Shown: positions 1 through 36,636 of the stretch, in pieces
Layout: each line of letters opens with the position of its first letter
How positions within the stretch are numbered: the stretch's first letter is position 1
NCBI GenBank assembly: GCA_012295275.1
Contig: CM022669.1
Span: 7,502,001-7,566,000 of the forward strand
Reading direction: 5' to 3'
Length of the DNA: 64,000 nucleotides
Source of the DNA: Chrysomallon squamiferum
Taxonomy: Eukaryota > Animalia > Mollusca
Position numbers and translations under genes: made by a program
Notes under the pieces: generated by a model
What the model was told of the DNA's origin: nothing
The model's database searches: none
Seen by the model: only the letters and a program-made list of their open reading frames with translations

Positions 1-1467
1 CATCGGACACGACGTAATTATACTGAGGGCCGCGTTTGAGCTCACCGTTTTCTGCTAGACAAAATAACATACAAACGCTTGACTTGTAAAACACAAATAG
101 CTTGTGCCAATCCTTAAAATACAGAGCTGCATTTACTTCTAAACGATCGCTAGGTTTGCACGTAATCTGAAATAAAAAATTTGACTGATCACTTATGGAA
201 TAAAATACACAGTATCCAATAAAAACAATAACAACAGGAATTTTAATTAATTTGAAAACATCTTGTTATTTTTGGTTATTACAAATAATGAAACGAGTAA
301 GTTTCTAAATCGCTTAACTATTAAAGTAAAAAACTGTATTCATGGTATAAAAATAAATGTCGTTAAAAATACTTTAAAATGAAAAAGATAATATATCTTT
401 TGCAAAAATTCCAGACATGAAAAATTTAAGAATCAGTTGATGCTATCGGTCAGTCTAATTTTATGTATCTGTTATTCATTTGTTTAAAGTGCAGGTATAC
501 ATCTAAAAAATGGAAGATAATTAGAACAATTATTCTTTGTTTGCAGATAAAAGTTTAATATGAAAACAAAGGGATTACAGATAAAAGTTTAATATGAAAA
601 CAAACAGTACACACACACACACACACACACACACGTGTGTTGTATAAAACAAGGATCAACACTTTATTATTGTAAAATGTTAATGATTGTGCTGAATTTA
701 TTAATAATCTAGACTGTCATCTTTCAAAAGACAATGTCAATATAGATATAGATATAGATATAGATATATGAAATCTTAATTAGAACAATATGTAGACAAA
801 ATCCCAAACAAAGCAACAAAAGAAATGTTTCCTAGATCATTCCTGCACTGTTCCAAATGTTATTATTTAGTTCATGCATACTTGTTGCTGCAGTGAAATA
901 TTTTAATCTATTGTCCGCGTATATTAGGAAAATGAATTAAGAAAAAAATTCGTTTCTGATAATCAACATGAAATGCCTAAAGAAATAACAAACGGGCTTT
1001 CTTCTTCAACAAAATTATATTATAATAAATAAATAAATAAATAAATAAACAAATATACAAAACTAACAAACAAACAAAACAAAACAGAACCAAGAATTTA
1101 CAGATGTTATCATGAAATATAAACATGTAATAAGACTTAGAATCTCACCTTTTCATAGTAGTAGCTATGTGCTGAAGGAACCATCTTTCTCGAGTCTGTG
1201 TAACTGGAAAACGTGTGACACGTGAGTTTACCGTTTACACGTGACACTTGGAAAGAACTGCACGAAGACAGATCAGAACAAAGTCTCGAGCACTGAAGAC
1301 GAGACAGTGAACCTTGGAAAGTGCCTCCAACACGTCCGTGATTGACCGGTCCATATTTGAATGTACCAGTGGGTTCTTTGCTGTTCTTCACAAACAATTC
1401 CAGTAAAACAGAAAATGAATATTAGAAATGAATTAAGTCCTGATGATGAGGAGTAAGGTGATCTCAT
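1..1467 (-). pseudogene. PAN/apple + hemopexin-like protein copy D, partial at window edge, +1 frameshift in exon 1 (pseudogene or assembly error)
   Basis: Exon 1 at 1467-1149 is 319 nt versus 318 in B and C. The extra base is at 1356-1359 (TAC ATT CAA ATA TGG versus TAC ATT CAA TAT GGA in A) and gives a stop at 1275-1273. Exon 2 starts at 166 (ITCKPSDRLEVNAALYFKDWHKLFVFYKSS...) and is open to the window edge. Confidence 0.7.
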
Positions 1468-1669
1468 TGTGGTCTTCACTCTGACTGCGATCTGATCACG
1501 TTTTGCCTCTCCTGATTCTCGGTTCTTTCTGGCATATTTGTATTCAGTGTCTACATTAATAGTGTATTTTATACTATTGCGATTGGTCGATAAACAACGC
1601 CTGTAACGGCTATTTCAGCTAGTCCCTTTTCTTACTGGTTCTGCGTATGCAACTGTAAAATATTTCCCT

Positions 1670-1704
<35 letters not shown>

Positions 1705-1792
1705 CGATCCTATGAACATATCCAAATGCGTGAGTAAATTTATTTTAGGGGCAGAGATGGTTAAAGATTTGCGTAATATTAACGTTTAATAT

Positions 1793-1832
<40 letters not shown>

Positions 1833-4488
1833 TTTTTTTCTTTATTTGTATTGTTTTTTTTTTTTTTTTTTTTTTTTTGGGGGTCTTATTTATTTAGATC
1901 ATTAATTGATTAATGTTGTAATATACGTCATTATAAAGAAATTAAATTTCCATCAAACTAAATTTATTACGAAGTAATGATAATCACGACACAGATTCAA
2001 ATGTCATTCATGTACAAACATCTGTGTACATCACAGTTCTTACTTCTTGGAAGGAAATGTCATATATATCTAGATTCATAGACCAACAAATAATAATCTG
2101 TACCACATTATGATTATAAAATAAAAGAGTAAAGACAATTTTATGTTATAAAAATTATTGTATTTTTTACCTTTGGGTCAATCTTTATCGAATTTTTTTT
2201 ATTTAATAATAACAATAATAAAAATATTTTAAAGAAAGTTCATTATATTGTCGTAAAGCTTTAAATAGCAAGCCAGCTGATCTATATTTAGCATTACCTT
2301 TTTGTGCTCGGATGATTTTGTGAAGCTGTTTTTCGCCTGGAAAGTTAGGACTTGTTCTAGAAGAGCAAAAGGATAATTATAAAAAAATAAAAATAAAAAA
2401 AAGAAGCAGTGGAGAAATATGTGTACCAAGTCAATAAAAGAGTTTTATTTCGCAAATTCAATAAATAAATAAATAAATAAAAATAACAGGCAGAACGATT
2501 GAGTTAGTGCTGGATGTTGAGCACGTCAAAAGGAAACTAGCTCTGGCATGGACGTTGTGAGTGATGGCGTAAAGAGAGAAGGAAAAATGAATGTTTAACG
2601 TCACCCGAGCACGAAGAACATATCGGCTGTTGTGTGTCAAACGAAGATAAATATACCAAAATGGTGATTACTTTTTATATATAAATTCAGCATTAATTAA
2701 AGCGCAGTGAAAAGAACTAGCTAAAATTTTAAATTAAGGTTTATGGAAAAAATTCTGTAACTCTCAAACCTTTTAAAACATTTTCAGGATCGAATCGAAA
2801 TGATTCCTTAACAATTTATTTGAACAGATGTATATTTTCGAATCTACCTAAGATGATTTCACTTCATCGAAATATGTGCGCATTGTCAGAGTACACTGAT
2901 GTTTGACGATTCTTCTTCAGAATAAATGAATGGGTCAAACACGTATGACCGATGCGAGCACGACACAAGACTATCTTATCTTTCCAATCATCTTGTAAAT
3001 GGAAAAAAAAAAAAAACATACTGGTGAATTTGACTATCTTATCTTTCCAGCACTTCTTTTAGGAGGACAGCCAATCTTCCAGCACTGACTTGAAAAAACG
3101 AAGTTTGTTCGCGTCCACATCGTTCGTTGATCTGTATATTTATGAACATTTAAAGATAAAAGTACAATAAATGCATTCTCCAAAATAGAAAAGTTTCTCA
3201 TTTCGCTATTTTACTTTTCTGCCTTTGTTTCAAAATTCTGAAAGTCAATAAATTCTAAAACGGGTAATCGATTCTGTACTTTTTTAATTGCAAAAACAAT
3301 GAACAAATGACAAATATTATAATATTCCATTCTAATTTTTAGTAACAACAACAAAATAAATAAATAAATAAATAATTGAGTAAATTAATAAACTGAACAT
3401 AATGTTTAAATAGTTTCACTCGTTGTATGGTGGACTATTAATTAGTTATAGCAGCTCTGCATGAAAATGTGTTAGATTACAAAATTTATTATAAATTAAA
3501 CAAAGGTACAATGTTGGATTTTATTAATTAAAGAAAGATTTAATATTGCAAGCCAATATTTTCATTTGATTTATAGGCATTTGCGAACATAAAAAGATAC
3601 ATTTCTTTTGAACAAAGCTCCAAATAATCCAAATTGAACTTATAGCCAGGGGAGGTAAAAGTGCTGGTTTACGAAATAAAAAATTCATTAAAAAGCAATT
3701 GTAAAAACTGTCTTAAAGGATTCTTCATGGGAAAAATGTCAAAATAAATCAAAGATTAAATAACCCTAATAGTGGAAAAAGAAAAATATTTTTTCTTCTT
3801 CTTTTTTTATGTTCTTCGCACAACAACAAACGTGCTTTTAACATTACAAAAGAGTCTTTACTGGATAATAATTCAGCTGACTGAACAAGTGCAATAATAA
3901 TAACAAATGATTTAATTATTTCGATAGTAAATTTGGCTTGCTTAATTACTATAGTATTATAGCTACCAGAATATATTTAAAGTCTACTTTTTAATGTCTA
4001 ATATACGTAGTTTAAAGAGAACTTTTACACTAACTTTCTTAATTAATAAAGAAAAATAACAACAAACTAGCAGAGCATAGACATTTTTCTCTTGTGAAAG
4101 AATTGAACTATAATGTCTTCTAATGTTATCAGAACACAAACAAAGAAGTAGTCTAACATTGACACACATGCTTGAAAGACTATTTTTACGCTTACTGTCT
4201 TAATTAATAAAGTAATATGACATGCCAGCCTGTTTCTCGCTTATCAGATCAATTGGCTTTGTCTTTTTAATCACCACTGTACAGGTTTACATTGTGATGT
4301 TCATTTTAAATCAAGGGAAGTAAGTACACTTTTCGAATTGACAAGCGAAAATTGACTTGTGACAATTCTATGCCACTTTATTGTCATTATTAGCTGAAAA
4401 CAGTTAAATTAGTAACTGAGAAATACAGAGAATTTTATTAAACGTTTTATTCATAACGCTGCAGCTAGGAAAAATATTTGTCAGCAGT

Positions 4489-5004
4489 CTATACGCACCA
4501 GTACTTAATTGGAAAACTCCGGTAACGTGGTTTTGAAACATAGTAGTACATCTTGGAGTTTTCGAACATAAGATACGACGAATGGCCAAACATCGTCACA
4601 GCAGTAACTCCAAATGGTGCCTGGGACCATCGCACTTCGTGTTCCGTCAATGGTTTACTTCCAGTTACGAAATATCTCGCCTCCGTTTTGTTGTAGGTGA
4701 GAACGTATACAACGTCGTTTCTGAACACGTTTAATTCTCGAAGGGTGTCGTCAACGTGTGTAATGTCGTCGAGATCGGAAAAGCCAGAGTAGCTGAAGTA
4801 GTCTTGGATTATATTTGTTGGACACGACACAGGCGTAAATGTTTCAGAATCTCGACTGAAACATGTCACAGAGCTTCCTAAAAGTAAAAACAAATATTTC
4901 CAACATTAACATCATCAACTTTTTCATCATCACCATCATTACTGTTGTCTGTTGTTGTTATTATTAATCTTTTTCTTGTCACATTTGTCTTGATTGTGCA
5001 AATT

Positions 5005-5055
<51 letters not shown>

Positions 5056-7119
5056 TTTTATTTTATTTTATTTTTTTATTTTTTGGGGGTATCGTTTTTT
5101 GTTTGTGATGTTTTTTGTTTGTTTTGTTTTTTAAATATATTTTTTTCAGTAATAAATAAAATGATTTGCGTAATTTATTAATAAATATTACATATTTGAT
5201 TACCTGAAATGAGCATTATATTATTTCCATAATAACGAGTGGCGCCATCTACGACAGTGGAAACGCCTGGGAACATATCGGACACGACGTAATTATACTG
5301 ATGGCCGCGTTTGAGCACAGTGTTTTCTTCTGTATAAAATAACTTACAAACGCTTGACTTGTAAAACACAAACAGCTTCTGCCAAACATTAAAATACAGA
5401 GCAGCGGTTGCTTCTAAAAGATCGCTAGGTTTGCACTTTATCTGAAATAAAAAATTAAAATTTTGAATGTGATTTGACTGATCATTTATGGAATAAAATA
5501 CACAGAGTGTATCAAAAAATCCAATAAAAACAACAACAGAAATTTTAATTAATTTGAAAACATCTTGTTATTTTTGGCTATTACAAATAATGAAACGAGT
5601 AAGTTTGTAAATCGCTTAACTATTAAAGTAAAAAACTGTATTCATGGCATAAAAATAAATGAAAGAAATATTCAGATAAATGTCATTAAAAATACTTTAA
5701 AATGGAAATTTGAAAAAGAAAATACAGTGGTACCTCGACTTATGAGTTTAATTCGTTCCGTGGTCGAGCTGGTCACTGAATTTGCTCGTATATCAAGTCA
5801 GTTTTCCCAGCTGAATTAAATTGAAGTACCATTAATTCGTTCCAGCTCACAAAAGTACCCCATGTTTTTGTAACGTGTTTTTAAATAAGAAAAATGTATT
5901 TATAAATGACAAATATTGTATAAAATAAAATAAAAGCGAATGTAAAGAAATAAATTGGTTTTGTAAAATGTTTTTATCTTGGAGATCAGACAAATTATTT
6001 TAAAGCCTTTGGCTAGAGTTACAGCCTTTATCGACTCCTTCTGCTTCAGTATGGTACTACGTTCGTACTGCCTAGCCAAGTGGACTTCATGCTCAAGTTA
6101 TTCTATGTTTTCGTGCTTTAATTCAATGTACACAATCCGCTACTTGTTCTCAGCACTGTCCTTTGCACTCACGTTCTTACGATCCATGGTCAGAAAAAAG
6201 AAATTTGGCAAAATACTGGACAAAAACGCGAACACAACTCAGCAGAGATGCTGCCACGGCCAGGTAACCCACGTGAAGTGAACGAGTGAAACGCGGGATG
6301 CTGACCAGATGTTTTGAAGTTCGTTGCGTCAACTAGCGAAGACATATCTGATGCTCGCTCGTATCTCGGATTTTTGCTCGCAAGTCAAAGCATCGAAAAT
6401 ATCGTAAGTTAGGGCACTCGTAAGTCGAGGTACCACTCTATATCTTTGGCAGAAACTGCAGACACGAAAAATTCAAGAATCAGTTGATGCCATCGCTCAG
6501 TCTAATTTTTATTTATTTCTTATGTATGCTTACATATGTGTATGTATGTATATAAATATATTTATATATTCATATGTACATATACTTGTATGTATATATT
6601 TGTACGTATATGTATGTGTATGTCTGCAGGTCAGAGCATGTTTGAACAAAAAAATTACATAAAAATTGAATAAATAAATAAATATATAAATAAATAAACC
6701 AATATACAAAACTAACAAACAAGCAAACAAAACAAAACACAACCAAGTATTTACAGCTCTTATCATGAAATATAAACATGTAATAAGACTTAGAATCTCA
6801 CCTTTTCATAGTAGTAGCTATCTGCTGAAGGAACCATCTGTCTCGAGTATGTGTATCTGGAAAACGTGTGACACGTGAGTTTACCGTTTACACGTGACAC
6901 TTGGAAAGAATTGCACGAAGGCAGATCAGAACAAAGTCTCGAGCACTGAAGACGAGACAGAGAACCTTGGAAAGTGCCTCCAACACGTCCATGATTCACC
7001 GGTCCATATTTAATGTACCAGTGGGTTCTTTGCTGTTCTTCACAAACAATTCCAGTAAAACACAAAATGAATATGAGAAGTGAATTAAGCCCTGATGAGG
7101 AGGAGTAAGGTGATCTCAT
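4489..7119 (-). CDS. Secreted PAN/apple + hemopexin-like domain protein, copy C (3 exons, 314 aa)
   Basis: Exons 7119-6802, 5441-5204 and 4877-4489 (ends YWCV*). GT-AG sites, open frame. Intron 1 is enlarged by a transposon insertion. Confidence 0.85.
5725..6438 (-). mobile_element. Non-autonomous Tigger/pogo-type (Tc1/mariner superfamily) DNA transposon, 714 bp, in intron 1 of copy C
   Basis: ~23-bp TIRs CAGTGGTACCTCGACTTATGAGT / ACTCGTAAGTCGAGGTACCACTC (2 mismatches), flanked by TA on both sides. The element is absent from the paralogous intron of copy D (~390). An internal decayed minus-strand frame from 6187 (MDRKNVSAKDSAENK*RIVYIELKHENIE*...LARQYERSTILKQKESIKAVTLAKG) resembles the N-terminal CENP-B/psq HTH of Tigger transposases. 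Confidence 0.88.
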
Positions 7120-8379
7120 TGTGGTCTTCACTCTGACTACGATCTGATCACGTTATGCCTCTCCTGATTCTCTACTCTTTCTGGCATATTTGTATTCTGT
7201 GTCTACATTAACAGAATATTTTATACTGTTGCGATTGGTCGATAAACAACGCTTTGTAACAGCTATCTCAGCTAGTGCCGTTTTTTTCGTAAGCCATTGT
7301 AAAATACTTCCTCTTTTTTTAAATGTTTCTTTTAGAAACTATAATATTGGATTTTATGAGTTAAAGAAAGATTTAATATTACATTTTATGTATTAAAGAA
7401 AGATTTAATATTGCAATCCAATATTTTCATTTGATTTATATGCATTTACGAACACATAAAGAAAAATGTCTCTTGAACAAAGCTCTTTATAATCGAAGAT
7501 ATTTGCCTAAGAACAATTCCAAATAATCAGTATTGACACTTATAGCCAGGTGAGGTAACAGCAAGAACAATAAAACAGCGCTGGTTTACGAAAAGTGTTT
7601 TATTAAAATTCAGTCGTATAAGTATCCCGTGGTTGTTTGGATAATGACCAAACCAGTGACGTGATCAGTTTGACTGCACCAAATAACAATCTATACAGAA
7701 TTATTTCTAAGTTTGTTTCTTTGAATAGTAATAAGAAAATAAAAAAACTTTTGAACGAACTTCATAGGAAAAATATCAAAATAAATCAAAGATTAAATAA
7801 CCCTAATAGTGGTAAACGAAAAGTATGTTTTTCTTCTTCTTTTTTTATGTTCTTCGCACAACAACAAAGCTGCTTTTAACATTAAAAAGAGTCTTTACCA
7901 GTGAATAATTCAGCTGAATGAACAAGTGTAATAATAATAACAACAAATGATCTAATCATCTGGATAGTAATTTTGTCTTTCTTAATTACTACACTACTGT
8001 CGCTACCAGAAAACATTTAAAGTATACCTTTTGATGTCTAATATACGTAGTTTAAAGACTACATTTTCACGTACTACCTTGATTAATAAAGAAATGTAAC
8101 AACAAACTAGGAGAGCATAAACGTTTGTCTCGTCAAAAGAATTGATCTAAAATGTGTTCTGATATTATTAGCACTCATGCAGTCACCAGTCAGTGTGTCA
8201 TGTATGTGATGACTTACCAATTCAGCTGTTTTGTAGCAGTGTTATTTTATTGTCATACATAGCCAGAGTAAACAGCTAAAAATAGTTAAAACAGTAAATT
8301 GCACATATAAACAATTTTATTAGACCATTTATTCGTGACGTTACAACAACTACATTTAAGAAAAAGGTATGTCAACAGT

Positions 8380-9749
8380 CTATTTACACCAGTACCTATG
8401 TGAGTAAACCCTGTAATTGCGTTTTGGAATGTAGTGGTGGAGCTTAGAGTTTTCGAATATGATGAAAGTGGAGTTGCCCAGGAGCGTCACGCCAGTAACT
8501 CCAAATGGAGCTCCGGACCATAGCAGATCTTCTTCCGTCAATGGTTTACTTCCAGTTACGAAATATCTCGCCTCGGTTTCGTTGTAGGTGAGAACGTATA
8601 CAACGTCGTTTTTGAAAACGTTTAATTCTCGAAGGGTGTCGTCAACGTGTGTAATGCCGTCGAGATCGGAAAAGCCAGTGTAGCTGAAGTAGTCTTGGAT
8701 TATATTTGTTGGACAGGCCACAGGCGTAAATGTTCCTGAATCTCGACTAAAACATGTCACAGAGCTTCCTAAAAAAAAAAAAAAAAAACAATTCATCATT
8801 ATCATCATCATCAACATGTTGATGATGTTGTTGTTTGTTTGTTTGTTTGTTTTTGTTGTTGTTCTTGTTGTTTTTTTCTAGGATTGTTTATATGTTCGTG
8901 TAATTTATTAATTTATTAATTACCTGAAATCAGCATTACGTTATTTCCATAATACTGAGTGGCGCCGTCTTCGACCGTGCTAACGCCTGAGAAAATATCT
9001 GGCATGTCGTAACTGTAGTGAATGCCGCCATGGAGAATATAGTTTAGTTCGTAATACATTAACCTATAAAGCGTTGTCCTGCTAAACACATACAGCCTCT
9101 GCCAGTCCTTAAAATACAGAGCTGCGGTTACTTTTACAACATCGCTAGGTCTGCACTTTAGCTGAAATAGAAAATGGAATATGAATGTGTATATATATAA
9201 TTTAAATTTAAAAAAAAATAAAAAAGGAAGAAACTAAATAGAAAGGATATAATATAAATGAAATTACTAGTTCTTGAAAATTCAAATCCCTTTTGATCTC
9301 TCTTCTTCTGTTCACTAGTATTCTACTTCACTGTATTATTGTTATCATCATCATTATGTTATTTATATGTGTGTGTACCTATAAAACTGTTATCATGAAA
9401 AGTAAAAATGTAATTAGTCTTTCAATCTCACCTCTTCGTAGTAGTATGTATCTGCTGAAGGAATCATTACTCTCTCATGTGTGTATTTGAAAAACGTGTG
9501 ACACGTGGGTTTACCGTTTTCATGTGAGACTTGGAAAGAATAACAGTAAGGCAGATCAGAACAAAGTCTGGAACACTGAAGACGAGACAGAGAACCTTGG
9601 AAAGTGCCTCCAACACGTCCATGATTGACCGGTCCATATTTAATGTACCAGCTGGTTATTTGCTGTTCTTCACAAACAATTCCAGTAAAACAGAAAATGA
9701 ATATGAGAAATGAATTGAGTCCTGATGATGAGGAGTAAGGTGATCTCAT
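8380..9749 (-). CDS. Secreted PAN/apple + hemopexin-like domain protein, copy B (3 exons, 314 aa)
   Basis: Exons 9749-9432 (318 nt), 9161-8924 (238 nt; LKCRPSDVVKVTAALYFKDWQRLYVFSRTT..., missed by the ORF track) and 8768-8380 (389 nt). Splice sites are at identical positions to the other copies and the frame is open. Confidence 0.85.
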
Positions 9750-10047
9750 TGTGGTCTTCACTCTGACTAAGATCTGATCAGTTATGCCTCTCCTGATTCT
9801 CTGCTCTTTTTGGCATATTTATATTTAGTGTCTACATTAACAGTGTATTTTATACTATTGCGATTGGTCGATAAGCAACGCCTATAACGGCTATTTCAGC
9901 CAGTGCCGTTTTTACTGGTTCTGCGTAAGCCATTGTAAAATATTTCCCATTATTTTTCAATACTATGAACATATCCAAATACTTGAGTAAATTTATTTTT
10001 CCGGCGGAGATAATTAATTCTTTTATATGTTTTTTATATTTTTATTA

Positions 10048-10087
<40 letters not shown>

Positions 10088-11859
10088 TTGCTTATTTATT
10101 TAGATCATTAATTGATTAATGCAATGATTACTCGTCATTATAAAGAAATTAAATTTCCATCAGATTTGATTTATTACGAAGTAATGAGAATCACGACACA
10201 GATTCAAATGTCATTCATGTACAAACATCTGTGTACATCACAGTTCTTACTTCTTGGAAGGAAATGTCATATATCTATGTTCATAGGACCAACAAATAAT
10301 AATAATAATAATAATAAAAATAATAATTTAGAAAACTGAAAGACGAAAAGTAGTTCTGCATATTGGGATGTCTAAAGTCAACGGCAAATCGTTGAACATT
10401 CATTCATTCGCTGCACTGCTTGAAATGAAATGAAAAAATTAATAATGTATACCATAATGAAAAATAAAGGAGTAAAGACAATTTTATATGGTATAAACAT
10501 TTCTGTAATTTTTACCTATTGTTTCAGTCTTTACAGAAAAAAATAAAATAAAACAAAATATTTTAATGAAAGTTCATTATAATGTCGAAAACATTTAAAA
10601 AGCATGACAGCTGATCAATATTTGACATTACTTTTTTGTGTTCGGATGATTTTGAGAAGCTGTTTTTCTCATGGAAAGTTAAGACTTCGTCTAGAAGAGC
10701 AAAAGGATCATCATAAAAATGAAGCAGTGAAAAAATATGTGTACTAAGTCAATAAAATACTTTTATTTCGGAAATTAACTGGAGAAACAATTGCTTTAGT
10801 GCTGGATGTTGAGCACGTCAAAACTAGTGCTAGCATGGACGTTGTGAGTGATGGCGTAAAGAGAGAAAGAAAAATGAATGTTTAACGACACCCGAGCACG
10901 AAGAACATATCGGCTGTTGTCTGTCAAACGAAGATAAATATAACAAAGTGGTGATTACTTGATATATATAAAAATTTAGTATTAATTAAAAGACACTAAA
11001 AAAAAAAAACATCTTTAGGATCGAATCGAAATGATTCCTTCACATTTATTTAAACGAATGTATCTTTCCGAATCTGCCTAAGATGATTTCACTTCATCAA
11101 AACGTGTCGCACTGTGAGAGTACACTGATGTTTGACGATTCTTCTTCAGGATAAATGAATGGGTCAAATAAATATATCCAATTCGAGCACGACAGAAGAC
11201 TATCTTATCTTTCCAGCACTTCTTTTAGGAGGACAGCCAGTCTCCCAGCACTGACTTGACAAAACGAAGTTTGTTCGCGACCACATCGTTCCAATCATCT
11301 TGTAAATGGTAAAAAGATATACTGGTGAATTTTATGTTTAAAATCAGGGTAAGGCATACCAAGCTCAAAGGTGCATGAGTTGTGTCCGTAAAGGTCACAC
11401 GTTAACAAAAATGTACCTGTCGTTGACCTGTACATTTATAAACATTTAAAGATAAGCTATCTCCAAAATAGAAAAAAGTACAATATATGCTATCTCCAAA
11501 ATAGAAAAAAGTTTATCCATTCGCCATCTTACTTATCTCCCTTAGTTTCAAAATTCTGAAAATCAAGAAATTCTAAAACGGGTAATCGATTGTGTACTTT
11601 GTTTAATACCAAAAACAATGAACAAATGACAAATATTCTAACATTCTATTCTAATTATTATGAGGAACAACATAATAAATAAGTAAATAAATAAATACCT
11701 GAATAAATTAATAAATTTTTCTTTACGTTTAATTCACCAAAATGTTCAGTTCATTTGTTCATTGGTGCACTATTAATCAGTTATCATTAAAATGTGTTAG
11801 ATTACAAAATTTATTATAGATTAATCAAAGGTACAATAGTGGATTATAGAAATTAAAAA

Positions 11860-11970
11860 AAGATTTACATTAGATTTTGTGAATTAATGGAAGATTTAAT
11901 ATTGGATTTTATGAATGAACGAAAGATTTTATATTCGATTTTATGAATTAAAGAAAGATTGAATATTGGC
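11860..11970. repeat. 32-bp minisatellite within the array spacers (copy number differs between units)
   Basis: AAGATTTAATATTGGATTTTATGAATTAAAGA-like units, about 3-4 copies here and fewer at ~3510-3550 and ~7343-7415. Confidence 0.7.
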
Positions 11971-12950
11971 ATCCAGTATATTCATTTGATGTATATGCAT
12001 TTACGAATATATAAAGAAAAGTTTCTTTTGAACAAAGCTCTTTATAATGGAAGATATTTGCCTAAGAACAGTTTAAGATAATCAATATTGACTCTTATAC
12101 CAAGGGAGGTAACAACAAGAGCAATAAAACAGTGCTGGTTCACGAAGAATGTTTTATTAAAATTCAGTGGTATAAGTATCCCGTGGTTGTTTGGATGATG
12201 ACCAAACCAGTGACGTGATCAGTTTGACTGCACCAAATATTTGTTCATATAAATCTAAACAGAATTATTTAAAGTTTTATTTATTGAATAATAAAAAAAA
12301 AAAAATTAAAAATTAAAAAACTGTTTTGAACGAACTCAATAGGAAAAATATCAAAATAAATCAAAGATTAAATAACAGTAATAGTGGAAAAAGAAAATAA
12401 GTTTTTTTTTTCTTCTTTTTCTAAGTTCTTCGCACATCAACAAAACTGCTTTTAACATTACAAAAGAGTCTTTACCAGTGAATAATTCAGCTGAATGAAC
12501 AAGTGTAATAATAATAACAAATGATCTAATCATCTGGATAGTAAATTTGTCTGTCTTAATTACTACACTACTGTCGCTACCAGAAAATATTTAAAGTATA
12601 CCTTTTGGTGTCTAATATACGTAGTTTAAAGACTACCTTTTCACTTACTACCTTGAGTAATAAAGAAATATAACAACAAACTAGGAGAGCATAAAAGTTT
12701 GTCTCGTCAAAACAGTCGATCGAAAATTTCTTCTAATGTTATTAGAATACATACAGTCATCAGTCAGTGTGTCACGTATGTGATGACTTACCAATTCAGC
12801 TGTTTTGCAGAAGTGTTATTTTATTGTCATACACAGCCAAAGTAGACAGCTAAAAACAGTTAAAACACTAAGTTGCAAATATAAACAATTTTGTTAGACC
12901 GCTTATTCTTAACGCCAAAAGTACATTTAAGAAAAAGATATGTCAACAGT

Positions 12951-14376
12951 CTATTTGCACCAGTACTTAATTAGCAAAATCCCGTAACTTAGTTTTGAAG
13001 CATAGTAGTACATCTTGGAGTTTTCGAACATAAGGTACGAGGAATTGCCAAACATCGTCACAGCAGTAACCCCAAATGGTGCCTGGGACCATCGCACTTC
13101 GTCTTCCGTCAATGGTTTACTTCCAGTTACGAAATATCTCGCCTCGGTTTCGTTGTAGGTGAGAACGTATACAACGTCGTTTTTGAACACGTTTAATTCT
13201 TGAAGGGTGTCGTCAACGTGTGTAATGTCGTCGAGATTGGAAAAGCCAGAGTAGCTGAAGTAGTCTTGGATTATATTTGCTGGACATGAGACAGACGTAA
13301 ATGTTTCAGAATCTCGACTAAAACATGTCACAGAGCTTCCTAAAAGTAAAATAAATATTTCAATCATTAACTTCTTCATCATCATCATCATTATTATTGC
13401 TCTTTTGCTGTTGTTGCTCACCTTCTTCTCTCTTTCTGTTTTGACTATGCATATTTTATGTCTTTTGGATTTTATTTCGTTCTGATCTGTTCTAAAATAA
13501 ACAATGCTGACAACGATGTGATGTTGACGATGTTGTTGTTGTTGTTGTTGTTTTTTGTTGGGGGGAGGTCGAGGTTGTTTACATGTTCGTGTAATTTATT
13601 AATAAATATTATATATTTAATTACCTGAAATGAGCATTACGTTATTTCCATAATACTGAGAGGCGCCATCTACGAAATCGGTAACGTCTGGGAACATATC
13701 GGACACGACGTAATTATGGTGAGGTCCGCCATAGAGAATATCGTTTTTTTCTTTATAAAATAACTTATAAACCGTTGTCCTGCTAAACACGTACAGCTTC
13801 TCCCAGTCCTTAAAATACAGAGCTGCGGTCGACTCTGTCAGATCGCTAGGTCCGCACTTTATCTGAAACAGAAAATGTAATTTGAGAGGGATGTGATTTA
13901 TCGCTTTTGGAATAAAATACAAATATGGATATTTTAAAACTGTTGTCTGCAAATTGGTTAACTATTAAACTAAAATCTTGTATTTATTATATTATTTATA
14001 TATGAGTGTGTACGTATAAAGCTGTTATCGTGAAAAGTAAAGATGTAATTAGTCTTTTCAGTCTCACCTTTTCATAGTAGTAGGTATCTACTGAAGGAAC
14101 CATCTTTCTCGAGTGTGAGTATCGGGGAAACGTTTGACAAGTGAGTTTACCGTTTTCACGTGAGACTTGGAAAGAAATGCACAAAGGCAGATCAGAACAA
14201 AGTCTCGAACACTGAAGTTTTGACAGAGAACCTTGGAAAGTGCCTCCAACACGTCCATGATTGACCGGTCCATATTGAATGTACCAGTGGGTTCTTTGAT
14301 GTTCTTCACAAACATTTGCAGAAAAACAGAAAAGAAAAAGGAAAAATGAGTGAAGTCCAGATGAAAATAAATTCAT
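12951..14376 (-). CDS. Secreted PAN/apple + hemopexin-like domain protein, copy A (3 exons, 311 aa)
   Basis: Exons 14376-14068 (ATG, MNLFSSGLHSFFLFLFCFSANVC signal; PAN-like CSRLCSDLPLCISF...LTC), 13862-13625 and 13339-12951 (ends YWCK*). All introns are GT-AG with compatible phases 0 and 1, giving 936 nt in frame. Hemopexin-like blade motifs: TAALYF, MFPDVTDFVDGA, LDDITH, WSQAPFGVTAV, with terminal Cys pair IKC...YWC. Confidence 0.85.
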
Positions 14377-15098
14377 GGTCGTTTTCCTTGTAAATGCTAT
14401 TTTATCTAGTTTTTCTCTCCATATATTTGTTTTAGTTCTTTTTCGTCGTTGTTTTTTTATTTTTCCCTTAGTCTCTACGGTTAGTCTCTGCTTTTTTGAA
14501 GCAGAATGGATTCTTAGATTTTTCAAATTGTCGCTGTTTCGACACCATGAAATAATCTAAAGTTCTGTCAATATCTTTAACGAGTTGCAGAGGGCTATCT
14601 GATAGACAGAGTTATTAAGCTTTGTTTTATTTATAACATTTTTTTATGTGTTTATGGTTTTACGACTGGTCGATAATTAGTGTCACACTCAAATTTCAGC
14701 CAGTACTATAGATGTTAATTGTTCGTTCTGCCTGATGTATTAAACTTTGCGAATTCTCTAATATATTTACCACTGATAATCAAATATATGATGCGAGGTG
14801 AGATATTAATTATTAATCAACAACCTCAGTAAAAAAATACATTAGTTTACCTTCATTTGAAACTGATGATGATAAAGATCATGGATCATTTTAATAACAA
14901 ATGGTAGAAGTCATAAAACAACAAAACACAAACAGAATACATGTTTTTCGACCGTTTATATATGATAGTAGTTAAATACGTAGAAATGTTCTTGTCGGCT
15001 TTCAGAAATTTGAGAAATTAACTCAGCACATTTTATGTAAATTATGTTTATTAGATGTGAGACACAAAATGTTTGTTTTATTTTAATTTATTCTATTG

Positions 15099-15229: not shown

Positions 15230-15370
15230 TTCTCTTTCATTTTTCCTTCTGTTAAACTACATATATTAAAAAATATAAAAAATATTAATAATATATATAT
15301 AAATATATTATTATTAATCTTTTTTATATTTTTTAATATATGTAGTTTAACAGAAGGAAATGAAAGAGAA
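15230..15370. repeat. Near-perfect local inverted repeat (hairpin, ~60-bp arms)
   Basis: TTCTCTTTCATTTTTCCTTCTGTTAAACTACATATATTAAAAAATATAAAAAA ... TTTTTTATATTTTTTAATATATGTAGTTTAACAGAAGGAAATGAAAGAGAA, with a short AT loop. Confidence 0.85.

Positions 15371-24341: not shown

Positions 24342-36636
<12,295 letters not shown>

Follow-up and report, generated by a model that had tools for sequence, protein, structure and literature searches.

Tandem gastropod genes predicted to encode a secreted PAN/apple module joined to a hemopexin propeller

To our knowledge, non-catalytic proteins built on the hemopexin propeller occur mainly in vertebrates, plants and bacteria. Vitronectin (PDB 6o5e/7u68) is secreted and combines a small N-terminal disulfide module with a single four-blade propeller closed by terminal cysteines, and PMC6739113 places the introns that split its repeats at the beta2-beta3 turn. 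The plant albumins (LS-24, CP4 and chickpea albumin 3s18, whose entry title reports hemagglutination) are a non-catalytic propeller alone, about 225 aa long, and the Photorhabdus photopexins/Plu1645 join a hemopexin domain to a putative carbohydrate-binding domain without an enzyme (PMC2422844). Four-blade propellers with clasp cysteines also form the hemopexin domains of MMP-2, -12, -13 and -14. The PAN/apple fold, with its four core cysteines, is known from the N-domain of HGF/plasminogen, leech anti-platelet protein, Sarcocystis SML-2 and mollusc proteins that combine PAN with a C-type lectin.

Here we describe a gastropod family, found in Chrysomallon squamiferum, that shares the layout of vitronectin, including the intron at the beta2-beta3 turn, but carries PAN in place of somatomedin-B, lacks RGD and long variable inserts, keeps one invariant beta1 Asp, and is 15% identical to its jawed-vertebrate counterpart. 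Compared with the plant albumins (10-15% identity), the family has the additional PAN module, and the photopexins differ in being bacterial and in having a C-terminal PA-IIL partner instead of an N-terminal PAN (PMC2422844). Compared with MMPs, the snail proteins have no propeptide, cysteine switch, zinc-binding motif or hinge, and what sets them apart from other PAN/apple proteins is the hemopexin propeller as partner. Among the 28,300 PAN proteins of PMC9249922, compared by names only, no entry is named hemopexin. Our literature search, which reached few subscription journals, found no paper describing the pairing of PAN with hemopexin, in agreement with an earlier note on this DNA, which knew of no characterized protein of this kind.

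The window, that is, the whole 64 kb stretch analysed, contains on its minus strand three intact three-exon genes (A, B and C) in tandem and a damaged fourth (D). Exon 1 (309 or 318 nt) encodes the signal and PAN; it is followed by an exon 2 of 238 nt and an exon 3 with 389 nt of coding sequence. Exon 1 of copy A (14068..14376) runs from the ATG through a signal-like hydrophobic N-terminus and a four-cysteine PAN/apple module to a phase-0 donor, exon 2 (13625..13862) holds the first clasp cysteine, hemopexin blade 1 and strands 1-2 of blade 2, and the coding part of exon 3 (12951..13339) holds the remainder of blade 2, blades 3-4, the terminal cysteine and the stop. The corresponding three parts lie at 9432..9749, 8924..9161 and 8380..8768 in copy B and at 6802..7119, 5204..5441 and 4489..4877 in copy C, all on the minus strand. 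The splice sites checked (four donors, and three acceptors each side of exon 2/3 where present) were all GT-AG, and after splicing the reading frames of A, B and C are open, giving products of 311-314 aa with pairwise identities of 71-78%. The exon sizes and order given in the earlier note are confirmed; its statement that four paralogs share this architecture holds for A, B and C, whereas D, also on the minus strand, is frameshifted in exon 1 (1149..1467, 319 nt) and its exon 2 (1..166) is truncated by the window edge, so its exon 3 is unseen.

A six-frame scan of the 64 kb gave four instances of the pattern Cys-x3-Cys-x5-Cys-x-SF, one per exon 1. An HMM built solely from the three Haliotis proteins matched seven window frames at E 2e-10 to 3e-7, four of them exon 1 and three exon 3. 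It also matched one exon-2 frame (E 0.034). Reversed-window controls gave no match (2351 frames in the whole search), which excludes a chance match. The joining of exons 1, 2 and 3 is supported by colinear homologues, at the level of sequence. RNA contigs of X2-X4 covered neither the bins in exon 1 of D nor the inner bins in exon 3 of C, which has no bearing on expression.

Full-length, colinear homologues, all annotated as uncharacterized, were found in Gigantopelta aegis (P0001; 43-46% identical to the window copies) and in three Haliotis species (28-29% identical in the two compared), with a single full-length copy found per species; the abalone gene is recorded as LOC124147043. Since Gigantopelta belongs to Neomphalina and Haliotis to Vetigastropoda, the architecture spans two gastropod subclasses and the tandem expansion alone is recent; of the lineage-specific, locally expanded family proposed earlier, the local expansion therefore stands and the lineage-specific architecture does not. 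One copy per species in Gigantopelta and Haliotis is unlike a diversified receptor family. Two of the five matches of the homologue search (P0004 and P0005) were LRR-protein false positives and were dropped. A scan of metagenome contigs gave 43 pattern matches, none of them confirmed.

The four PAN core cysteines (C56, C60, C66 and C80; C70/74/84/96 in HGF) are invariant in all seven full-length proteins. PAN_1 scored above its gathering cut-off of 21.4 bits in P0001 (21.5) and P0010 (24.9) but below it in the three Haliotis proteins (16.5-19.3) and three window copies (15-18.5; 16.1 in copy A and 18.5 in copy C). In the model of the Gigantopelta protein, residues 20-111 matched PAN/apple domains (HGF-N, leech anti-platelet protein, factor XI and MIC4) at Z 6.8-8.9, a middling range that was consistent across rows; for the PAN region the values were 8.7 for leech anti-platelet protein, 8.4 for the HGF N-domain, 7.6 for the Sarcocystis lectin SML-2 and 7.2 for the factor XI apple. 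The model of window exon 1 alone had a pLDDT of 55 and no Foldseek match at E<=0.001.

Evidence for the propeller fold likewise comes from a model of the Gigantopelta homologue, which is about 45% identical to the window copies. Of five AF2 models, the one of P0001 was confident, with a mean pLDDT of 71.8 (the other four 46.6-55.0). With this protein, the best 24 listed Foldseek rows were all hemopexin-fold entries, and in VIA the top 11 of 50 rows were hemopexin folds (Z 13.6-18.2, rmsd 2.7-3.7, 156-190 aligned), followed by the next unrelated row at Z 9.7. The plant albumins gave the best structural match (Z 18.2, 190 aligned). An independent Atlas model matched hemopexin domains at TM 0.72-0.78 in 10 of 10 rows. 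By sequence, PF00045 (gathering cut-off 21.3) matched none of the six window exon-2/3 peptides, and its best score was 8.7 bits, in P0007. Searches of PDB sequences with single exons gave chance matches or none, and a profile comparison of exon 2 with exon 3 was weak (probability 2.5, E 0.018). Top matches in a viral structure library were insect-virus MMPs and an entomopoxvirus protein, which carry no information on function. Because the window peptides alone fall below the Pfam cut-offs, the domain assignment rests on homologues and structure: the PAN/apple module and four-blade hemopexin fold expected by the earlier note were both recovered in the Gigantopelta model, whereas in Pfam Hemopexin stayed below cut-off everywhere and PAN_1 did so in the three window copies and the Haliotis proteins.

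Cysteines C106 and C310, invariant in seven of seven proteins, lie at the ends of the hemopexin-aligned range and are predicted to form the circularising disulfide, consistent with the terminal clasp read from the sequence before. Bonding of C106 to the N-terminal cysteine, as in a six-cysteine apple, was considered and seems less probable, the clasp being favoured by spacing and alignment. The small-residue motif of beta1 (VDAAF-like) is clear in blade 2 and degenerate in blades 1, 3 and 4. Intron 2 falls within the Gly of the beta2-beta3 turn of blade 2, and the other three blades have no intron. Since vitronectin has introns at this same turn (PMC6739113), an animal origin of the propeller is suggested, and a signal and PAN exon may have been joined through a phase-0 intron to an animal hemopexin unit of the MMP/vitronectin type. 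Acquisition of the propeller by horizontal transfer, from bacteria or from plants, was rejected on the intron position, with no non-animal match identified in the homologue search.

An unlikely alternative, in our estimate, is that the family derives from an MMP by loss of the pro- and catalytic domains and, during tissue remodelling, would compete for collagen, TIMP or receptors with the MMPs themselves, much as a free hemopexin (PEX) fragment does. The hemopexin domains of MMP-12, MMP-2 and MMP-14 rank 2-5 in VIA (Z 17.1-17.5), the only PDB sequence matches were MMP-13 and serum hemopexin (E 0.66-1.4), and the repeat motifs align with MMP-13 (copy A exon 2 at E 1.4). Leech anti-platelet protein, which binds collagen, is the second-best PAN match. 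In addition, supplement 2 of PMC9249922 lists a Platynereis 'Matrix metalloproteinase 1_14 (Fragment)', A0A411F668, among the 28,300 PAN proteins, so that, going by the listing (sequence not seen), PAN and MMP coexist in one lophotrochozoan protein, an annelid MMP. Yet the fold does not single out MMPs, since their propellers share only 8-13% identity with this one and equally good scores come from plant albumins and vitronectin. The signal peptide is directly fused to PAN within one exon, and a protein that binds conserved collagen would not be expected to change rapidly in blade 1. A family profile search found no longer relative of 551-2000 aa among 5887 candidates, which is weak evidence by the tool's own note, and a word-based search for longer proteins with exon 3 found none among 64. 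HExxH is absent from all seven full-length proteins and no MMP motif (HExxHxxGxxH or the PRCGxPD cysteine switch) occurs in the six frames of the window, in agreement with the earlier view that there is no catalytic domain. The same six-frame result, together with the equal length and start of the homologues, led us to reject two further models, a fusion with the Ig gene that lies upstream and an MMP catalytic exon hidden in the locus.

Comparison of the seven full-length proteins for cysteines, motifs and hydropathy gave in each a single N-terminal hydrophobic peak (KD19 1.4-1.9 vs 0.75-1.37 elsewhere), matching the signal-like start noted previously, and a secreted product is likely, with the signal peptide judged on hydropathy alone. 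Neither RGD nor KGD was found in any of the seven. Eight cysteines are invariant beyond the N-terminal one, for which we predict two disulfides in PAN, one closing the propeller and an extra one in blade 2. A ninth invariant cysteine sits at the signal/mature boundary, with extra cysteine in copy C and in P0001, and Tyr makes up 8-9% of the window copies and the Gigantopelta protein. Free cysteines could cross-link chains, and these features would suit a structural part of secreted material (mucus, shell or scale organic matrix, egg coat) with tandem copies mainly for dosage. A CCAAT and TATA-like motif common to three of the four copies fits the same idea; it lies on the minus strand at 9848..9867 (about 105 nt 5' of the B ATG, a putative promoter), 7219..7238 (5' of C) and 1567..1586 (5' of D). 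Expanded secretion-related families are also reported for a related vent snail (PMC7142155). We nevertheless consider this role quite unlikely: the proteins have no low-complexity, acidic or repetitive tracts, the model is compact, globular and two-domain, and only one of the four beta1 aspartates of the vitronectin acidic pole is invariant here. Nor do two vent-snail genome papers mention the family, in their main text or in the supplements searched, and it is likewise absent from literature listings on abalone proteomes and mucus.

Variation among the copies is uneven. Paralogue-variable columns number 29/50 in blade 1, 27/53 in blade 4, 22/83 in PAN, 15/46 in blade 2 and 7/57 in blade 3 (chi-square P 1e-6, with post hoc grouping), and identity to Gigantopelta is likewise low in blades 1 and 4 (0.25 and 0.36, vs 0.55-0.57). 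Blade 1 has a dN/dS of 1.17 (95% CI 0.68-2.14), which does not demonstrate positive selection. Blades 2-3 look homogenised by gene conversion, which partly accounts for how little blade 3 varies, since the homogenisation extends to silent sites (third-position heterogeneity P 0.004). Blades 1 and 4 may be changing fast through relaxed constraint; outer strands are variable in all hemopexin domains.

The gene could be functional and its local expansion carry no special meaning, the copies being redundant recent duplicates that drift under relaxed selection, one of them decayed. This reading, compatible with any molecular role, seems to us plausible but somewhat doubtful. Whole-gene dN/dS is 0.67-0.79 with CIs up to 1.0 or above, and close to 1 for exon 2; copies and spacers resemble one another in a mosaic fashion, one copy was found per relative, and D is frameshifted. 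Against drift, B-C exon 3 has a dN/dS of 0.48 (CI 0.30-0.75), and A, B and C keep open frames with no internal indels over 290 codons despite 67-103 non-synonymous differences per pair, where neutrality would, by a rough uncomputed estimate, give several stops.

In copy D, one extra base near 1356 leads to an early stop, and the mature part is 96% identical to copy C. The extra base may mark a pseudogene, an allele or an assembly error. The sole X1 contig across 1356 lacks it and has a depth of 136, compared with about 45-65 in most listed contigs, and may be a collapsed paralogue. X1 depth summed over exons reaches 470-630, suggestive of further copies, but the measure is not a copy number.

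Our preferred reading, held tentatively at a little under an even chance, is that the protein is a likely secreted, non-catalytic, two-site binder that acts outside cells, linking a fixed partner of the host with a ligand that varies more. A four-cysteine PAN/apple module would be joined directly to a four-bladed hemopexin propeller, both folds being predicted. The conserved N-terminal half of PAN and blades 2-3 would dock on a constant partner, and the fast-changing blades 1 and 4 would contact a variable one, for instance a microbial surface or a matrix glycoprotein, in the manner of an adhesin or opsonin. Unequal crossing-over would have produced the copies recently, and gene conversion would have acted across blades 2-3. 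There are analogues: the vitronectin propeller binds a bacterial outer-membrane protein, and the photopexins fuse hemopexin to a lectin domain (PMC2422844).

A heme or metal scavenger akin to serum hemopexin is suggested by the fold itself and appears very improbable, since serum hemopexin requires two propellers and two axial His, and the snail family has one propeller and no invariant His across the seven full-length proteins. Photopexins are believed to be iron scavengers (PMC2422844).

The earlier note saw here a candidate for an undescribed system. The pairing is indeed one for which we found no description, but joining two common binding modules in a new way does not yet make a system; PAN with hemopexin is a new combination of known domains. 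Such combinations of familiar modules are common in secreted mollusc proteins. More speculatively, and improbably in our judgement, the two-site binder may represent an undescribed class of invertebrate recognition proteins on an animal hemopexin propeller, in which selection and gene conversion keep PAN and blades 2-3 constant and the tandem copies diverge in blades 1 and 4 to bind different microbial surfaces, possibly those of symbionts, in this relative of the vent snail Gigantopelta.

The family provides an example of a conserved gastropod propeller that is missed by Pfam Hemopexin and left uncharacterized in public annotation. The protein is small and expressible and its paralogues differ mostly in two blades, so swapping blades could show where ligand specificity lies. 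Should it bind collagen, the protein would be a gene-encoded counterpart of the free MMP PEX fragment; should it bind microbes, it would add a scaffold to mollusc innate immunity and symbiont recognition.

Positions 1-14376 of the window carry four related genes, all on the minus strand, at 28-35% GC within a surrounding genome that is AT-rich, intron-containing and animal. Three are intact: copy A (14376-12951, 311 aa), copy B (9749-8380, 314 aa) and copy C (7119-4489, 314 aa), each with three exons of 309 or 318, then 238, then 389 coding nt. Their junctions are GT-AG, in silico splicing gave open frames, an AATAAA lies within 130 nt of every stop, and the proteins share 71-78% identity. The four-paralogue array with common exon architecture described in the earlier note was confirmed for these copies but not for copy D (minus strand, from 1467), which is frameshifted by an extra base in exon 1 and truncated in exon 2 by the window edge. 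This base lies at 1356; the sole contig of sequencing run X1 across the site lacks it and may derive from a paralogue. Roughly 105 nt before the ATG, B, C and D carry a common CCAAT plus TATA-like motif. Since this proximal motif is absent from 14377-14700 in copy A, whose N-terminus is also shorter, copy A may be regulated differently.

For the domain assignment, Pfam PAN_1 scored 15-18.5 bits on the window copies (cut-off 21.4) and passed the cut-off in two of the five homologues having that region, while Pfam hemopexin had no match in the window copies. In the ESM Atlas, window exon 3 fell in hemopexin clusters (score 0.93, of low recognition value), and the C-terminal part of the Gigantopelta aegis homologue reached TM 0.72-0.78 to hemopexin. 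An AF2 model of the latter protein gave pLDDT 71.8 and pTM 0.63 (remaining four models, 46.6-55.0). The best 24 matches listed by Foldseek were all hemopexin folds, as were the best 11 of VIA-align against 48,161 chains (Z 13.6-18.2). Residues 20-111 matched PAN/apple domains, best 4a5t (Z 8.9), which we take to be plasminogen, followed by leech anti-platelet protein (8.7), HGF (8.4), SML-2 (7.6) and factor XI (7.2). Both folds are predicted for the window proteins by transfer from this model at about 45% colinear identity, a level at which fold transfer is safe by established practice, and the PAN plus hemopexin reading is supported. Across the seven full-length sequences (copies A-C, Gigantopelta and three Haliotis proteins), 47 positions are invariant, including nine Cys. 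PAN contributes four of these, each end of the propeller one, and the signal/mature boundary one more; the last two lie in blade 2 (strands 3 and 4) and likely form an extra disulfide.

When 1.84 billion representatives were searched with a profile of the three exon-3 peptides, five matched at E<=0.001, two of which were rejected as false positives (LRR proteins). The others were Gigantopelta XP_041362645 (314 aa), a Haliotis cluster (H. cracherodii XP_071108223 and H. rufescens XP_046373600, 311 aa) and an ENA fragment. A family profile, matching 4 of 3560 candidates, added H. asinina XP_067666420 and one exon-1 fragment; every named homologue is annotated 'uncharacterized'. Alignments with the window proteins run end to end and continuously over both exon junctions, at 43-46% identity for Gigantopelta and 28-29% for H. 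cracherodii and H. rufescens, which places the source animal among gastropods and nearer Gigantopelta than Haliotis. The similarity of two database fragments to the family stops precisely at the two junctions, an indication that other species share these intron positions. Judged from these sequences, the architecture is older than the Neomphalina-Vetigastropoda split, so the family is not lineage-specific as once proposed; one full-length copy per relative was found at the sensitivity of these profile searches, and the expansion thus still appears local.

Within the array, the spacers were duplicated along with the genes (75-91% identity), and with pairwise dS of 0.13-0.25 the copies are therefore recent tandem duplicates. 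The C-D spacer (1105-4142) matches the A-B spacer (9388-12755) over its whole length, yet D exons are nearest C exons, a conflict that points to a mosaic origin through conversion or unequal crossing-over. A dispersed repeat within the spacers (2586-2985, copy 10870-11291) occurs in many X1 contigs and as short pieces in RNA runs X2-X4, and is probably a common interspersed element. An insertion of about 714 bp (5725-6438) sits in the first intron of copy C; TA-flanked with near-perfect 18-nt terminal inverted repeats, it resembles a Tc1/mariner-type non-autonomous element. Outside the array lie an AT-rich near-palindrome of about 140 bp (15230-15370, 93% self-complementary) and a neighbouring multi-exon minus-strand gene (about 24850-30000). 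The latter encodes Ig domains of the V-set and I-set types (E 3e-12 for I-set) plus a stalk rich in Thr, and resembles lachesin/IgLON/DIP proteins.

Variation among the copies is uneven between domains (P 1e-6, grouped post hoc), with variable columns numbering 22/83 in PAN, 29/50 in blade 1, 15/46 in blade 2, 7/57 in blade 3 and 27/53 in blade 4; identity to Gigantopelta is distributed likewise across the domains. Over about 270 nt of blades 2-3, each of the three pairs is more similar than expected by chance (P 0.0002-0.0004). Because third positions are homogenised there too (heterogeneity P 0.004; per-pair P 0.02, 0.15 and 0.04), gene conversion in addition to constraint is indicated. Blade 1 has a dN/dS of 1.17, with an interval spanning 1 (CI 0.68-2.14) that does not demonstrate positive selection; whole-gene values are 0.67-0.79. 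For the expansion only, neutral redundancy of the copies is a possible if rather unlikely account.

None of the seven proteins contains HExxH, RGD/KGD or a strong second hydrophobic peak, no His is invariant across them, and an MMP motif is absent from all six frames of the 64-kb window. MMP identity was rejected on HExxH and the six-frame result, serum hemopexin on the missing His, with heme scavenging very improbable, and vitronectin on RGD/KGD. By analogy, the mode of action may nevertheless resemble that of vitronectin's propeller. In vitronectin, introns interrupt the repeats at the beta2-beta3 turn, whose consensus is KTYFFK-GN-KYWRY (PMC6739113). The window genes are alike, intron 2 interrupting the blade-2 counterpart of this turn at its Gly, from which we infer that the propeller descends from animal pexin genes (chance match roughly 1 in 20, a rough estimate). 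An MMP-derived collagen/MMP competitor is doubtful; it is helped by a Platynereis MMP fragment (UniProt A0A411F668), listed as PAN-containing in supplement 2 of PMC9249922. This PAN-MMP architecture, from an annelid, may likewise be undescribed. A structural component of secretion seems slightly more doubtful still.

Full-text literature searches, covering few subscription journals, found no description of PAN/apple plus hemopexin in molluscs or gastropods and no mention of six accessions, in agreement with the earlier note, which knew of no such protein; the papers that did come up were off-topic. Neither of the two vent-snail genome papers uses the word 'hemopexin' in its main text or in the supplements searched. 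Our leading, still tentative, reading is that the product would be a secreted, non-catalytic two-site binder, in which the unchanging surfaces of PAN and blades 2-3 would engage a host partner, while blades 1 and 4, which vary, would bind a changing ligand. What appears new is the domain pairing, shared with abalones, with a putative function.
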